This document shows positions 1-7,138 of a stretch of DNA of 7,138 nt, in pieces. The notes under the pieces were generated by a model. That model was not told the DNA's origin, made no database searches, and worked only from the letters and a program-made list of their open reading frames with translations. This DNA comes from a virus (Duplodnaviria; Heunggongvirae; Uroviricota; Caudoviricetes). Positions within the stretch are counted from its first letter, which is position 1; every line of letters starts with the position of its first letter. The stretch lies in the IMG/VR virus record IMGVR_UViG_2737471841_000002, positions 1 to 7,138 of that record; one strand, written 5' to 3'. The position numbers were made by a program, and so were the translations under genes.

Positions 1-310
1 GGGCAGCTCCTGCCCCACCTGATTCTGGTTGGATTTGTTGTGCATTATCCAGCGTCAGATAAAAAACGTTTGACTGGTTAAGCTCTCCTTTTCTTCTGAA
101 TTCCCTTTTCAAAAGCCCCATCTCTTCCAGTGCCCTAATGTGACTTTTTACTGTCGATCTGCTCACCTCACACTGGTCAGCGACATGTTGATATGAAGGC
201 CAGCATTCGCCATTATCATTGGCGTTATCGGCAAGTTTAATCAGAACCAGTTTTCTCAGTGGGTTGCCAACCTTTATATTCATGGCCTTAGCCATAAGAT
301 TCATGCTCAT
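1..310 (-). CDS. Replication initiation protein (lambda O position), N-terminal 103 codons only; gene continues beyond the window start
   Basis: Minus-strand frame is open from ATG at 310 to the window edge (hand translation MSMNLMAKAMNIKVGNPLRKLVLIKLADNANDNGECWPSYQHVADQCEVSRSTVKSHIRALEEMGLLKREF...). The LADNANDNGECWPS...STV...AL..L pattern looks like the winged-HTH N-terminus of phage replication initiators. Start overlaps the upstream ORF stop (ATGA). It sits downstream of cII as O does in lambda. Absent from the ORF track because it is edge-truncated. Confidence 0.6.
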   Translation of the reverse strand, partial: MSMNLMAKAMNIKVGNPLRKLVLIKLADNANDNGECWPSYQHVADQCEVSRSTVKSHIRALEEMGLLKREFRRKGELNQSNVFYLTLDNAQQIQPESGGAGAA

Positions 311-450
311 TTTGACTTCTCCGAAGTTTTGTACCTGTTAAGTATTTCTCTCAGTGGCACAGCTATTGCTGGATTAACCCCCTGATAAAACTGGTCACGT
401 AGCACATCTTTTCGGTGATTAACGCGTTTATTTTCCTGCGTTTTTCGCAT
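307..450 (-). CDS. Hypothetical small basic protein (47 aa) between cII and the replication gene
   Basis: 3' part of track ORF 307..618; the upstream part overlaps cII out of frame. ATG at 450 is preceded by GAGGT with a 6-nt spacer; stop overlaps the next gene's start. No family recognised. Confidence 0.4.
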   Translation of the reverse strand: MRKTQENKRVNHRKDVLRDQFYQGVNPAIAVPLREILNRYKTSEKSK

Positions 451-455
451 ATAAT
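427..455 (+). promoter_or_regulatory. Candidate Po-like promoter for the oop-like RNA (perfect TATAAT at 450-455, weak -35 TTTATT near 427-432)
   Basis: TATAAT read directly on the + strand about 50 nt upstream of the oop-like terminator; the -35 is poor. Position matches lambda Po (between cII and O, opposite to cII). Confidence 0.4.
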
Positions 456-461
456 TACCTC

Positions 462-531
462 GTTGGATGTTATTAAAATTCCATTTGTATTTGATCAGAA
501 CGCTCGGTCTTGCACACCGGGCGTTTTTTAT
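462..531 (+). ncRNA. oop: oop-like antisense RNA overlapping the cII 3' end, ending at an intrinsic terminator (stem 501-508/516-523, T-run 524-529)
   Basis: + strand gatcagaacgctcggtcttgcacaccgggcgttttttattggtgag closely resembles the lambda oop terminator as recalled. Stem cgctcggt/accgggcg (one G-U pair), 7-nt loop, then TTTTTT. It lies antisense inside the last ~57 nt of cII. The 5' end is inferred from the promoter, not observed. Confidence 0.55.
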
Positions 532-772
532 TGGTGAGTCCATCAAGTGCATACTTAAAAGCCCTGCTAATCGGACTGATGTCTGATGCCATTCCGAAAG
601 CACACAAGACCGAAGCAATAAACCTCCAGTCCGTTCTGCTTATCTTCGATTCATGACAGCCAATCATCTTTGCCAGACCGCGCTGGGTAAGCGTTGACAG
701 GTTGATGAGTAAATCAGTTTCAGCGCGATCAACGTCGCGCTGTGATAGTTTGCTGTAACTTGTTTGTTCCAT
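473..772 (-). CDS. cII: CII-family transcriptional activator of lysogeny (99 aa)
   Basis: Track ORF 473..772. C-terminus LTNKKRPVCKTERSDQIQMEF matches the lambda CII tail (..TNKKRPAATERSEQIQMEF); an HTH-like segment TQRGLAKMIGCHESKISR is present; gene lies immediately downstream of cro. The N-terminal two thirds differ from lambda CII. Confidence 0.85.
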   Translation of the reverse strand: MEQTSYSKLSQRDVDRAETDLLINLSTLTQRGLAKMIGCHESKISRTDWRFIASVLCAFGMASDISPISRAFKYALDGLTNKKRPVCKTERSDQIQMEF

Positions 773-878: not shown

Positions 879-1079
879 TTATGCAGTTGTTTTTTTGTTG
901 CTTGGGAAGGGCTTTATTTCTTCCGCATAAACGCTTCCATCAGCGTTTATAGTTAAAAAAATATTTCGGCCTGCATGAATGGCCTTGTTGATCGCGCTTT
1001 GATATACGCCGAGATCTTTAGCCGTCTTGGTTTGACCAAAGCGCATTGCATAATCTTTCAGGGTTATGCGTTGTTCCAT
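879..1079 (-). CDS. cro: Cro repressor, lambda type (66 aa)
   Basis: Track ORF translation [66 protein letters not shown] is near-identical to lambda Cro as recalled (two conservative differences). Confidence 0.95.
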
Positions 1080-1176: not shown

Positions 1177-1893
<717 letters not shown>

Positions 1894-3048: not shown

Positions 3049-3093
3049 AAACACATCAGCAGGACGCTGGTAGCCAAACGGAACAGATTGGCA

Positions 3094-3128
3094 TGCTCTT
3101 TAACTTCGATGGGGCGCTGACAAAGCGC
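3094..3128 (+). promoter_or_regulatory. nutL: boxA (tgctctttaa, 3094-3103) and P22-type boxB hairpin (gcgctgacaaagcgc, 3114-3128)
   Basis: boxB is identical to the P22 nutL boxB as recalled (GCGCUGACAAAGCGC), a 5-bp stem with a GACAA loop, about 30 nt downstream of the PL start region. Confidence 0.85.
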
Positions 3129-3247
3129 AAACAGATACCAAACGAGATGGGTTTGGCGGTGATGTGAATTGCAGCTGCAACGACAGCAACCAGAAGATCA
3201 GCACCTGGCGCATCACCACCAAAGCCATTTCACATGAGGAAAATATC

Positions 3248-3556
3248 ATGACGGTAATCGTGTACGGAAAATCAACATTTGCAGGAAATGCCAAAACTCG
3301 CCGTCATGAGCGGCGCAGAAAGCTGGCTATCGAGCGTGATGCTATATGCAACATCATCGATTCGATCTTCGGCACAGACAGTGAGGAACCTGTTCAGGAA
3401 GCCCCGAGAAAGCGTTTAAGCATTTCTGAAAAAGCAATATCACTCGGCATCATTAGCAAATCAAATACAGATGCGAATAGCGGAAGCGTTTGTTTGCCTG
3501 AAGTTGCACTGTATGCTGCTGGTTACAGAAGGCAAAAACTAATTACAGCGAGGTAA
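3248..3556 (+). CDS. N: N-type transcription antiterminator, P22 gene 24 type (102 aa)
   Basis: Track ORF 3164..3556 with internal ATG at 3248 preceded by GAGGA; MTVIVYGKSTFAGNAKTRRHERRRKLAIERD... contains the P22 N arginine-rich motif (NAKTRRHERRRKLAIER) as recalled. It is first in the PL operon and paired with P22-type boxB sites. Confidence 0.9.
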   Translation: MTVIVYGKSTFAGNAKTRRHERRRKLAIERDAICNIIDSIFGTDSEEPVQEAPRKRLSISEKAISLGIISKSNTDANSGSVCLPEVALYAAGYRRQKLITAR

Positions 3557-3558
3557 AA

Positions 3559-3837
3559 ATGAAGCCTAGCATAACAATCAAGCCAGCGAGAGATAATAGC
3601 AGGAACCGCCGCAGAGAGGCCAGGAAGGCAGAAAGAGCAGAGAAGGAAAACAAGAGCCGGGAGGAGAGAAAGGCAGAGATTTTGGAAAAAGGAGGATTGG
3701 CTGCCGTGAGGGGTGAAAAAGCAGCTGAATTAGCAGTAGCTCACGAAAAGACAGAGATTGACAATAATTCTGGTGGAGATGCAATGTTTAAAGTTGTCAA
3801 TCACGCCCATCAACGAAACCCCAAAAAGAAATGGTAA
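3559..3837 (+). CDS. Hypothetical highly charged basic protein (92 aa) with an arginine-rich N-terminal segment
   Basis: Track ORF; ATG two nt after the N stop, with the GAGG Shine-Dalgarno inside the N 3' end (translational coupling). Composition RDNSRNRRREARKAERAEKENKSREERKAE. Confidence 0.55.
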   Translation: MKPSITIKPARDNSRNRRREARKAERAEKENKSREERKAEILEKGGLAAVRGEKAAELAVAHEKTEIDNNSGGDAMFKVVNHAHQRNPKKKW

Positions 3838-3840
3838 TCA

Positions 3841-3862
3841 ACCCGTCCAAGACGGGTTTTTT
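3841..3862 (+). terminator. Intrinsic terminator (tL1-like) after the 92-aa ORF
   Basis: acccgtccaagacgggtttttt: GC-rich stem then T6, three nt after the stop. Confidence 0.7.
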
Positions 3863-3894
3863 ATTGCAAGCAAACCACTTATTTGAGGTGAGAT

Positions 3895-4146
3895 ATGGAG
3901 TTTCATGAAAGTGCGATTTGTGATTTTCGCGCTAACGCAAATTCAGTAAAACCACAGCCAATTGCAGTTCTTTTTAAAACAATGGGTGCGTGGGCTGTTT
4001 TATGCTTCGCCGCTGATGACACTGACGCAAGAATGGCAATAGGCCAAGAGATGGAGATGGACCCGACAAACGATGAATTCATAATTTATGGCGCTCCATC
4101 TAATTACTTACTTGATACCTGCAACATTTACAACAAGGCTGCCTGA
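3895..4146 (+). CDS. Hypothetical protein (83 aa) with a hydrophobic central segment
   Basis: Track ORF; GAGGTG Shine-Dalgarno 5-10 nt upstream of the ATG. No family recognised. Confidence 0.5.
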   Translation: MEFHESAICDFRANANSVKPQPIAVLFKTMGAWAVLCFAADDTDARMAIGQEMEMDPTNDEFIIYGAPSNYLLDTCNIYNKAA

Positions 4147-4282
4147 TGGTGGCCTTTATTTTTGGCATAAACAACAGAATAAACACTGCACTGTGTATTC
4201 ATTCCAACGAGTGAATACACGGAGCAATGTCGCTCGTAACTAAACAGGAGCCGACTTGTTCTGATTATTGGAAATCTTCTTT

Positions 4283-4310
4283 GCCCTCCAGTGTGAGGGC
4301 AATTTTTTTT
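4283..4310 (+). terminator. Intrinsic terminator (tL2-like) directly upstream of the next gene's ribosome-binding site
   Basis: gccctc-cagtgt-gagggc followed by aatttttttt. Confidence 0.7.
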
Positions 4311-4322
4311 GATGGAGGATAT

Positions 4323-5291
4323 ATGAGTGAAGTAACAGATTTAGTTGTTATTGAAAAAGCAAATGCAATGACTGTATTTCAGTCTGCCGACCAGATTGAA
4401 GAAATCCTTCAAAAGGTTGAACGTGAAGTTATGTCCTTTGTGCCTGATATCACAACGGCAAAGGGCAGAAAGGAGATCGCTTCTCTGGCGTATAAAGTTG
4501 CGCAGACGAAAACATATCTCGATGGTCTTGGCAAAGACCTTGTTGCTGAACTGAAGGAAATTCCAAAGCTAATTGATGCCAACCGCAAGACAGTGCGTGA
4601 TCGACTTGATGAGCTGAAAGCCAAGGCACGCCAGCCTCTTACTGATTATGAGGATGAACAGGCACGGATTAAAGCCGAAGAAGAAGCTAAGGCAGCAGCT
4701 GAAGCTCTCGCAAAGCAAATTGAGTCTGACCATGAAATAGCGATTTTGATGGATCGCGAATTTGACCGCCAAAGAGAAGAGGCAAGACTCAAAGCGGAGC
4801 AGGAAAAGCGAGAGCATGAAGAACGCTTAAAAAGAGAAGCTGAAGAGAAAGCCAGAGCAGAAGCCGAAGCAAAGGCAAAAGCAGAAATTGAAGCAGCAGC
4901 AAGACGAGAAGCAGAGGCTAAGGCCGCAGCGGAACGTGCAGAGCGTGAACGCATTGAAGCCGAGCAACGAGCACAGCGCGAAGCAAAAGAGGCAGCAGAA
5001 CGAGCTGAAAAAGAAAAGCAGGCAGCAATTGAAGCAGAACGCAGAAAAGCACAGGAGGAGGCTGAACGAATCCGTCGCGAGGCTGAAGCAAAAGAGCAAG
5101 CCAGAATCGCAGAAGAAAAAAGAATCAAGGACGAAGAAGAGCACAGAGCAAAGGATAAAGCTCACCGGAAAGAAGTAAATAACAAAATACTTGCTGACCT
5201 TATCAAGGTTGGCGCATCAGAAGATGTTGCTAAAAATATCATAACAGCCATCGTAAAAGGCGAAGTATTCGCAACAAAAATAACCTACTAA
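4323..5291 (+). CDS. Hypothetical protein (322 aa): N-terminal domain, ~180-aa E/A/K/R-rich helical region, short C-terminal domain
   Basis: Track ORF 4227..5291; internal ATG at 4323 is preceded by GGAGG and lies downstream of the terminator at 4283-4310, so 4323 is the likely start. The central region is a degenerate charged repeat (EAEAKAKAEIEAAARREAEAKAAAERAERERIEAEQRAQREAKEAAERAEKEK). Confidence 0.7.
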   Translation: MSEVTDLVVIEKANAMTVFQSADQIEEILQKVEREVMSFVPDITTAKGRKEIASLAYKVAQTKTYLDGLGKDLVAELKEIPKLIDANRKTVRDRLDELKAKARQPLTDYEDEQARIKAEEEAKAAAEALAKQIESDHEIAILMDREFDRQREEARLKAEQEKREHEERLKREAEEKARAEAEAKAKAEIEAAARREAEAKAAAERAERERIEAEQRAQREAKEAAERAEKEKQAAIEAERRKAQEEAERIRREAEAKEQARIAEEKRIKDEEEHRAKDKAHRKEVNNKILADLIKVGASEDVAKNIITAIVKGEVFATKITY

Positions 5292-5315
5292 TAAAACCAA
5301 CATAAGGAACCACCC

Positions 5316-5462
5316 ATGATTTACGCAATCGCGGGAGGCGCTCGCATGGGTGCCTTCCAACTAAATGAATCTTTACTTGAACGAATCACCCGTAAATTAC
5401 GTGACGGATGGAAACGACTCATCGACGTACTTAATCAGCCAGGAGTTCCAAAAAATGGATAA
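5316..5462 (+). CDS. cIII: CIII-like protein (48 aa), the lambda FtsH inhibitor that stabilises CII
   Basis: Hand translation MIYAIAGGARMGAFQLNESLLERITRKLRDGWKRLIDVLNQPGVPKNG; its core matches lambda CIII as recalled (ESLLERITRKLRDGWKRLIDILNQPGVPKNG). AAGGA Shine-Dalgarno upstream. Below the ORF-track length cutoff. Confidence 0.7.
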   Translation: MIYAIAGGARMGAFQLNESLLERITRKLRDGWKRLIDVLNQPGVPKNG

Positions 5463-5568
5463 AACACTTATGGCTATTCAGACTAAATTCACTATCGCCA
5501 CTTTTATTGGCGATGAAAAGATGTTTCGTGAGGCCGTCGAAGCCTACAGAAAATGGAGGTCTAAATGA
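5455..5568 (+). CDS. kil: Kil-like host cell-division inhibitor (37 aa)
   Basis: Internal ATG of track ORF 5365..5568, preceded by AGGAG; MDKTLMAIQTKFTIATFIGDEKMFREAVEAYRKW resembles the lambda Kil N-terminus as recalled. Overlaps the cIII 3' end by 8 nt. Confidence 0.6.
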   Translation: MDKTLMAIQTKFTIATFIGDEKMFREAVEAYRKWRSK

Positions 5569-5753
5569 TTCCGGTAGAGCTGGCGAAAACTCCAGAGTTA
5601 AGTCGATTAAAAAGAGAATATCACATTGCTGAGGCTCGTTACTGGCGTAAAGCGGGAGATAAATCAAAGAAACAACTTTGTTTATGGCAAGCACAAAGAG
5701 AGCGCATGAATGAGCGCGAATTTCTTTCCTCCCCATCCGAATTACCATTCTGA
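5565..5753 (+). CDS. Hypothetical protein (62 aa) in the position lambda uses for gam
   Basis: Track ORF; start overlaps the kil stop (ATGA). No resemblance to lambda Gam as recalled. Confidence 0.45.
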   Translation: MIPVELAKTPELSRLKREYHIAEARYWRKAGDKSKKQLCLWQAQRERMNEREFLSSPSELPF

Positions 5754-5761
5754 GGTGAATT

Positions 5762-6469
5762 ATGGATTTGAATAAATTCGATGAGCCATTCAGCCCTGAA
5801 GATATCGAATGGCGAATACAGCAAAGCGGTAAAACACGCGATGGAAAAGTGTGGGCTATGGTGCTGGCTTATGTCACGAACAGGGCAATCATGAAACGCC
5901 TGGACGATGTTTGCGGCAAAGCAGGATGGCGCAATGAATACCGCGATATTCCCAACAACGGAGGCGTTGAATGCGGCATATCAATCAGGATTGATTCCGA
6001 ATGGGTAACCAAATGGGATGCTGCTGAAAACACGCAGGTAGAAGCCGTCAAAGGTGGTCGTTCAGGTGCAATGAAGCGTGCTGCCGTTCAGTGGGGAATC
6101 GGTCGGTATCTGTATAACCTTGAGGAAGGTTTCGCACAAACATCTCTCGATAAAAAGCAGGGGTGGCACAGGGCAAAACTGAAGGATGGAACAGGATTTT
6201 ACTGGCTCCCTCCATCGCTGCCGGGATGGGCAATCCCAGCATCAGATAACAAACCATCACCAGAAAATACCAACCAGAAATCTCCATCGGTTGACTGCGA
6301 ACAAATCCTGAAAGACTTCAGCGATTATGCGTCAACAGAAACTGACAAGAAAAAACTCATCGAGCGTTATCAGCGTGACTGGCAATTAATGGCTGGCAAC
6401 GAGGAGGCGCAGGCTAAATGCGTTCAGGTAATGAACATCAGAGTTAACGAACTAAAACAGGCGGCATAA
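5762..6469 (+). CDS. Rad52-like single-strand annealing protein (phage recombinase, 235 aa)
   Basis: Track ORF; GAGGTG Shine-Dalgarno. The segment EAVKGGRSGAMKRAAVQWGIGRYLY parallels the conserved Rad52 motif (EAVTDGLKRALRSFGNALG); gene is immediately followed by ssb. Confidence 0.75.
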   Translation: MDLNKFDEPFSPEDIEWRIQQSGKTRDGKVWAMVLAYVTNRAIMKRLDDVCGKAGWRNEYRDIPNNGGVECGISIRIDSEWVTKWDAAENTQVEAVKGGRSGAMKRAAVQWGIGRYLYNLEEGFAQTSLDKKQGWHRAKLKDGTGFYWLPPSLPGWAIPASDNKPSPENTNQKSPSVDCEQILKDFSDYASTETDKKKLIERYQRDWQLMAGNEEAQAKCVQVMNIRVNELKQAA

Positions 6470-6943
6470 ATGGCAAGCAGAGGCGTAAATAAGGTGATCA
6501 TTATTGGTCGCCTTGGGCATGATCCAGAAATCAGATATTCACCATCAGGAACGGCATTTGCAAACCTTACCGTTGCTACGTCAGAACAATGGCGTGATAA
6601 GAAAACTGGAGAGCAAAAGGAGCAGACGGAGTGGCACCGCGTGGTAATGAGCGGGAAACTGGCAGAAATTGCCAGCGAATATCTGCGAAAAGGCTCTGAT
6701 GTTTATCTTGAAGGCAAATTGCGGACAAGAAAATGGCAGGATCAAAGTGGACAGGATCGGTTCACTACCGAAGTCATCGTGGGCGTTGGTGGAACCATGC
6801 AAATGCTTGGTGGCAAGCAAGGAGGCAATGAACAGTCTTCACCTCAGCGAAATAACGGTCATCAACAAAGACAGCAACCTCAGCAGCATGGAAATCACAG
6901 CGAACCACCTATGAACTTCGACGATTCGGATATTCCGTTCTAG
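6470..6943 (+). CDS. ssb: Single-stranded DNA-binding protein (157 aa)
   Basis: Track ORF resembles E. coli SSB along its OB-fold region ([16 protein letters not shown]...TEWHRVV...[11 protein letters not shown]) as recalled, with a Gly/Gln-rich linker and acidic tail ending DDSDIPF. Start ATG abuts the upstream stop (TAAATG). Confidence 0.95.
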
Positions 6944-6952
6944 GAGCTGAAT

Positions 6953-7138
6953 ATGAAAATCTGCTCAAGATGCCATCAACAGAAGGAAGAAAGGGACTTT
7001 CAAATCAGAAGAGCATCCAGAGATGGATTAACTGCCGCTTGCCGGGCTTGCCTGGCTGAATATGACAAAGAGCGCGCGGGATTGCCACATCGAGTATCAG
7101 CAAGGAGAGAATATCAATCATCGGAACGCGGCAGAGAA
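6953..7138 (+). CDS. Hypothetical Cys-rich protein, N-terminal 62 codons only; runs off the window end
   Basis: ATG at 6953 preceded by AGGAG with a 6-nt spacer; hand translation MKICSRCHQQKEERDFQIRRASRDGLTAACRACLAEYDKERAGL... has two CxxC-like pairs (C4, C7, C30, C33). Confidence 0.45.
   Translation, partial: MKICSRCHQQKEERDFQIRRASRDGLTAACRACLAEYDKERAGLPHRVSARREYQSSERGRE

Follow-up and report, generated by a model that had tools for sequence, protein, structure and literature searches.

A probable pO-oop-tO antisense RNA unit across the end of cII in a mosaic lambdoid phage

An oop element between cII and the replication module

The early region studied here lies in a 7,138-nucleotide stretch of DNA from a tailed phage (positions 1 to 7,138 of IMG/VR record IMGVR_UViG_2737471841_000002; hereafter, the window). 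At the 3' end of its cII gene we find an element that is very probably the pO-oop-tO unit of a mosaic lambdoid phage, one that combines lambda-type immunity with a phage-21-type cII and the start of a replication module of the Stx-phage type; its oop RNA, predicted to be ~69 nt long, would act as in lambda. The coordinates of all features are collected in Table 1.

By analogy with lambda, we infer promoter activity, transcript ends, RNase III cleavage and an effect on lysogeny as follows. A sigma-70 promoter, with its -10 over the start codon of a small ORF, would fire leftward (+ strand) at ~462, and transcription would end at ~530, at an intrinsic terminator that the final ~19 cII codons contain. 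The duplex formed by this RNA and the cII message would be cut by RNase III, the cII message would decay, the level of CII would fall and the lysis-lysogeny decision would shift to lysis. That lambda OOP promotes RNase III-dependent decay of cII mRNA is the finding of Krinke and Wulff as it is cited in PMC5869508, PMC12197685 and PMC7067206. In lambda the physiological contribution of OOP is modest in some conditions, and it has no role in the loss of CII after SOS induction (PMC2327240). In the open-access literature we found no paper with transcript data for an oop variant of the window type.

Table 1. Features of the window discussed in the text, with their coordinates
Feature	Position	Strand	Basis or remark
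O-like replication initiator, 5' part, HTH_36; runs off the window	1-310	-	annotated O in phi24B and Min27; Pfam
47-aa ORF between oop and the replication gene	307-450	-	hypothetical protein in phiXuzhou21
Candidate weak -35 of pO, TTTATT	427-432	+	3/6 matches, 17-nt spacer; low confidence
Mosaic joint at ~ -19 of pO	443		homology starts exactly there in 20/80 IMG/VR loci
pO -10 hexamer, TATAAT	450-455	+	sequence; first base pairs with the A of the 47-aa ORF's ATG
Predicted oop RNA, ~69 nt	462-530	+	predicted start 7 nt after the -10 (G462), predicted end near A530 after the T-run
Weak 5' stem-loop, UGGA 464-467 / UCCA 480-483, 4 bp	464-483	+	counterpart of the strong lambda-type oop 5' hairpin
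cII, 99 aa, phage-21 type	473-772	-	Pfam Phage_CII PF05269, E = 1.9e-34
Mosaic joint at the cII stop codon, inside oop	477-480		homology starts there in 39/80 IMG/VR loci and lambda
Segment matching lambda DNA (88% identity): final 19-20 codons of cII, 3' two thirds of oop	480-538		alignment
Intrinsic terminator tO: stem 497-508/516-527, loop 509-515, T-run 524-529	497-529	+	fold, covariation and covariance model
Mosaic joint, cII body versus tail/terminator unit, just 3' of the T-run	531-545		mEp234, L004 and lambda versus the window
cro	879-1079	-	ORF/Pfam reading
cI	1180-1893	+	ORF/Pfam reading

The predicted RNA and its terminator

An earlier note on this DNA, made from the sequence alone, had proposed that a hairpin with a T-run on the + strand and a perfect TATAAT about 50 nt upstream delimit an RNA of ~70 nt that is antisense to the 3' end of cII. 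Each of these elements is present: the -10 stands 46 nt before the core stem, and the RNA that we predict covers the last 58 nt of cII together with an 11-nt spacer that reaches to the ribosome-binding site of the next ORF, being perfectly complementary to the cII message there. We set the 3' end of the predicted RNA by analogy with lambda oop, which ends in U6A.

The core stem of tO is GC-rich, with CGCTCGG (501-507) facing CCGGGCG (517-523); it extends to 12 pairs, carries a 7-nt loop and is followed by six T. Folding of the hairpin-plus-RNA gives -19.3 kcal/mol, with z = -2.9 relative to shuffles. The 5' stem-loop is much reduced, with 4 bp in the window versus 5-11 bp in most of the 17 homologues that were folded, and RNA stability could differ with it.

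Generic terminator patterns are not enriched in positions 1-1300, where 2 were found against 1.2 expected. One of these two sites is a terminator-like pattern inside cII on the - strand (607-632, 9 pairs, weak T-run), which at this background is probably a chance match. A scan with Rfam returned no match in the window; the known lambda and P22 oop RNAs were likewise unmatched, so Rfam 15 has no oop model and this null is uninformative.

Selection on the hairpin and its strand

We assembled 101 loci encoding CII relatives from genomes and IMG/VR, together with annotated phages. In 65 of the 68 distinct 3' regions, the strand antisense to the end of cII carries a stable hairpin with a T-run after it. 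Cronobacter phage ENT47670 has the hairpin and misses the T-run threshold only through an interrupted run. In Yersinia phage vB_YenM_29.18 and Pseudomonas phage PP9W2, both distant relatives, there is no clear antisense terminator or -10 at the 3' end of cII. Because these two loci are without a clear antisense terminator, oop appears to be confined to the enterobacterial lambdoid group rather than universal to the CII family.

The terminator hairpin is under selection as RNA. This follows from an alignment (A3) of 25 distinct terminator variants taken from cII loci, including those of lambda, P22, HK620 and many enterobacterial prophages. RNAalifold recovers from it an 11-bp helix in which 8 of the 11 pairs have changed on both sides in a compensatory manner. 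Paired cells make up 86.5% of the helix, compared with 37-57% when the partners are slid against each other; cells with a double change number 40 as against 10 at most in the slid controls, and the covariation score is 0.527 as against 0.194 at most. None of 500 shuffles reached the values of the real alignment. The pairs are also asymmetric between the strands: there are 55 G.U cells and 9 A.C cells, so selection on the helix has acted on the oop strand rather than in the cII mRNA.

To see the element from its relatives only, we built a covariance model from 11 other terminators, leaving out all sequences of the lambda and window types. Its sole significant match in the window is 481-532 on the + strand (31.8 bits, E = 8.7e-7), the next best reaching 13.4 bits (E = 0.12). 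By sequence and by covariation, the predicted rho-independent terminator tO is embedded in the last ~20 codons of cII on the antisense strand.

The pO promoter

In lambda, pO is under LexA control. The window-type -10 lies over the start codon of the next gene and 7 nt upstream of the predicted start of the RNA; it overlaps the ATG of the 47-aa ORF (448-450, - strand), and the Shine-Dalgarno sequence of that ORF, GAGG (the complement of 458-461), abuts the predicted 5' end of oop. TATAAT occurs in the window only here, on either strand; with 3.2 copies expected by chance, the count of 1 is not significant alone and we do not use it as evidence by itself.

No pO was called by a consensus promoter scan, because the -35 matches the consensus at only 3 of 6 positions, and the promoter has no extended -10. 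The case for a promoter therefore rests on the -10, on its position and on homology. The -35 regions of pO are not conserved between lambdoid phages (PMC3349717), and the hexamers by themselves do not suffice for an active, full pO in lambda, which requires about 94 nt (PMC5869508); beyond -19 the upstream sequence of the window is unrelated to that of lambda. Most of the 68 distinct cII loci have a [CT]ATAAT hexamer at the equivalent site, where it is flanked by the ribosome-binding site and the start codon of whichever gene comes after cII. Lambda has CATAAT placed likewise over the start of O, and the curated P22 record (BK000583) has an annotated oop promoter over the start of orf48. The window-type pO is therefore a putative promoter.

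Hayes et al. found a conserved 33-bp box, ACTGGATCaATCcACAGGAGTaATTATGaCAAA, spanning pO and the 5' part of oop in 23 lambdoid phages (PMC3349717). It has no match in the window at up to 3 mismatches, a threshold at which the lambda control is positive (with 3 mismatches). Among 80 loci with a nearly identical cII the box is present in 38, and the window-type sequence in another 38; the box marks one large subgroup and is not a defining trait of oop RNA. Within it lies a 12-nt palindrome, TGGATTGATCCA, at the oop 5' end of P22 (L105), HK620 (L106), L012, L019, L021, L022 and others, which may form a tetraloop hairpin in the RNA or serve as a binding site for a protein. In the window only TGGA and TCCA remain of this palindrome, 12 nt apart.

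Comparison with known oop systems

The earlier note's reading of the element as a homologue of lambda oop is upheld by its position, by its identity to the oop sequences of lambda and phage 21 and by a covarying terminator on the oop strand. The island that matches lambda oop is the sole similarity to lambda outside the immunity region; the first ~18 nt of the predicted RNA do not align to lambda or phage 21 oop.

Like lambda OOP (pO-oop-tO, 77 nt), the window RNA would be antisense to the 3' end of cII, with an overlap of 58 nt versus 52-55 nt in lambda. The arms of the terminator stem and the T-run are identical in sequence, the -10 is placed over the start codon of the gene after cII, and the 5' end of the RNA abuts the ribosome-binding site of that gene. 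The window RNA is shorter (~69 versus 77 nt), having lost 8 nt from its 5' part, and its 5' stem-loop has 4 bp in place of the 10 bp of lambda. The -10 is TATAAT rather than CATAAT, and the downstream gene is the 47-aa ORF rather than O. In the terminator itself, the loop has 7 nt versus 4 nt in lambda, with VCK in place of AA in CII.

The oop RNA annotated in phage 21 (AJ237660.1) matches on the cII side: CII is 92% identical, including the VCK loop, and the stem, loop and T-run of the terminator are the same. Homology to lambda starts in the terminator loop, exactly at the 'border lambda immunity' (imm21/lambda) of the record. Unlike the window, which has a 5' oop and pO of the Stx-phage type, phage 21 has a lambda-type 5' oop, pO and O gene.

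On the replication side the match is to Stx phages (phi24B, Min27 and many Stx2a phages), and a 91-nt pO-oop stretch is 94-99% identical in 63 records. These phages have immunity regions of their own, in contrast to the lambda-type cI and cro of the window. According to reviews, Stx phages carry oop-like sequences in their cII-O regions (PMC5488031, PMC12197685). The near-identical copies of the window-type variant in the 63 phage records are mostly from Stx2a phages, and oop is unannotated in all such records that were inspected; it is annotated in the GenBank records of phage 21 and P22.

P22 oop (BK000583, with annotated promoter and terminator) shares the order c1/cII, oop, small ORF (orf48) and replication gene, and has its promoter over the start of the small ORF. 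It differs in the sequence of its terminator, where the changes are compensatory, in a shorter CII tail (..FEA) and in a 5' hairpin that is wholly intergenic; its small ORF belongs to DUF2740, which the window ORF does not match. RNA-seq has revealed an OOP homologue in prophage BTP1 (PMC7067206), and 23 lambdoid phages have kept oop within the gene order cII-oop-orf-O-P (PMC3349717).

The 47-aa ORF of the window is the positional analogue of P22 orf48 and of HK620 hkaW (DUF2740). We considered it as a homologue of orf48; the similarity amounts to a local match of 8 residues at the same position (KDVLRDQF versus KNILRDRF, E = 0.01), and homology is not established. The ORF has no match in Pfam. 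Its stop codon overlaps the ATG of the next gene (ATGA, 307-310), which suggests translational coupling of the two.

The cII tail

CII of the window is 40% identical to lambda CII overall and 92% identical to that of phage 21. The earlier note had described its C-terminal tail as lambda-like and the remainder as not, and the alignment agrees: the tail (LTNKKRP..TERS.QIQMEF) shares 17 of 21 aligned residues with lambda, and the body is at ~28% amino acid and ~51% DNA identity. The 11 codons for the two arms of the stem and for the T-run (L T N K K R P ... T E R S) do not differ from lambda at any of their 33 nucleotides. The loop codons do differ, AA in lambda versus VCK in the window, through a 3-nt insertion. 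The last 8 codons differ from lambda at 6 nucleotides, of which 4 are synonymous, 1 is a conservative E/D change and 1 falls in the stop codon.

Across the family the protein reflects the pairing of the terminator. Where CII tails have the form K-x-P...TE-z (proteins P0001-P0120; loci L004-L024), the residues x/z are R/R in 13, S/D in 6 and A/A in 2 of 22. These are exactly the combinations in which the first two codon bases are complementary. As the x/z pairs match the base pairing of the terminator, RNA structure imposes correlated residue changes on the CII tail, which would make the tail a clear example from nature of protein covariation driven by an RNA fold.

Two causes had been offered for the lambda-like tail, constraint from the overlapping RNA and a recombination joint inside cII, and there is evidence for both. 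The codons of the tail double as hairpin and T-run and so are held at the nucleotide level; the absence of differences at the stem and T-run codons and the compensatory stem changes across loci speak for this. The segment of tail and oop also sits at a module boundary and is exchanged independently of the cII body, to which the three tail versions found on one body, the clustered homology boundaries and the phage 21 border point.

Recombination joints

The earlier note had proposed aligning the cII DNA to lambda and P22 c1 to locate any breakpoint within the gene; the joint between body and tail lies at ~531-545. One cII body occurs with three versions of the tail and terminator: the window type, the exact lambda tail (L004) and, in mEp234, KKSPAATEDFKQIDMQF. 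Megablast had drawn the mEp234 boundary at 517; we rejected this position, as alignment puts the true joint just 3' of the T-run and mEp234 has a different, compensated terminator. In the GenBank record of phage 21, the 'border lambda immunity' is marked inside oop and cII.

On the other side of the unit, a lambda/P22 hybrid also diverges at -19 of pO (PMC3349717). One cII allele is joined to pO of the 33-bp-box type in 38 loci and to pO of the window type in 38 loci. Further homology boundaries among close relatives are at 787 and 872-886. With joints at 443, at 477-480 and at ~531-545, the oop gene therefore straddles module joints. The 5' part of oop moves, together with its promoter, as part of the replication module, and the terminator moves along with the tail of cII, so that recombinants carry chimeric oop genes with a 5' part from the one module and a 3' part from the other.

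Alternative readings and significance

The segment could in principle be a relic, kept only as a shared recombination site between the cII and replication modules, with a dead promoter and no functional RNA. We regard this as unlikely. Mosaic joints do cluster here (443, 477-480 and ~540), the 33-bp pO box is missing, the -35 is weak and the annotated lambda/21 homology border falls here as well. However, a mere homology patch would not give compensatory stem changes with an excess of G.U over A.C, nor would it keep [CT]ATAAT at the same site in most divergent loci. The -10 of the window type is, moreover, a perfect consensus, and the variant is maintained in 63 phage records and in 38 of 80 IMG/VR loci.

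A constraint on the protein only, with the tail serving as the C-terminal degradation signal of CII for FtsH and the hairpin as a by-product of its codons, is very improbable. Lambda and the window share the final six residues, QIQMEF, in spite of the 4 synonymous changes, and protein constraint probably accounts for this end of CII. It does not account for the hairpin, which is always kept across the family although the residues of the tail vary widely; the R/R, S/D and A/A pairs track base complementarity and not chemistry, and the 11 stem and T-run codons have no synonymous changes. The least probable reading places the role of the hairpin in the sense cII-O mRNA, where it might aid processing or stability, instead of in terminating a leftward RNA. 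Its inverted repeat can largely fold in cII mRNA, and Krinke and Wulff (1990), as cited in PMC5869508, place processing of the lambda cII-O message near here. Nevertheless, the G.U and A.C cells (55 versus 9) make for a better helix on the oop strand, a T-run follows the stem on the + strand only (on the - strand the stem is followed by TTCTGATC), and the -10 is at the right distance upstream on the + strand.

The unusual traits of the element are limited to its shorter 5' segment, its weak 5' stem-loop and the missing 33-bp pO box. Its significance beyond correct annotation is small: oop is a textbook antisense regulator, the element is already known, and both its conservation across lambdoid phages and the homology border inside cII are documented. 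What the present analysis adds is a quantitative demonstration, for 25 variants, of oop-strand covariation in the hairpin, evidence that the CII tail is thereby forced to change at correlated residues, and evidence that the oop RNA gene straddles module joints. A more speculative suggestion, which we hold to be doubtful, is that the window-type oop common to many Stx2a phages forms a functionally distinct sub-class, with the covariation of the CII tail as a related point. It is without the 33-bp box and the protective 5' stem-loop and has a consensus -10, so its rate of synthesis and its half-life could differ from those of lambda OOP. Were such a sub-class real, it would alter the threshold between lysis and lysogeny and, in Stx phages, the output of toxin.

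Gene layout and mosaic make-up of the window

The window corresponds to a lambdoid early region, given in the leftward reading direction. Positions 865-1297, which span cro, the operators and cI, are 97% identical to lambda, and positions 300-797 are 97.8% identical to the Stx phages Min27 and phi24B. Positions 1-1900 can be described as a three-way mosaic of a lambda-type cI-cro segment, a phage-21-type cII (92% at the amino acid level) and pO, the small ORF and the start of the O-like gene of the Stx-phage type, with joints at ~443/477, 787 and 865-886.

Directly after cI, in the position of rexAB in lambda, a 322-aa ORF (1829-2797, + strand) encodes a protein with a P63C domain (E = 2.7e-22). 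As listed, this ORF overlaps the 3' end of cI by 65 nt; it has no match in PADLOC. Further along the + strand, Pfam identifies leftward early genes for the N antiterminator (3164-3556), Kil (5365-5568), a Rad52/Erf-type annealing protein (5762-6469) and SSB (6470-6943). In this part the window resembles Sf6 rather than lambda, with 98% identity to Sf6 over 4132-7138 and to IME10 over 3054-7138.
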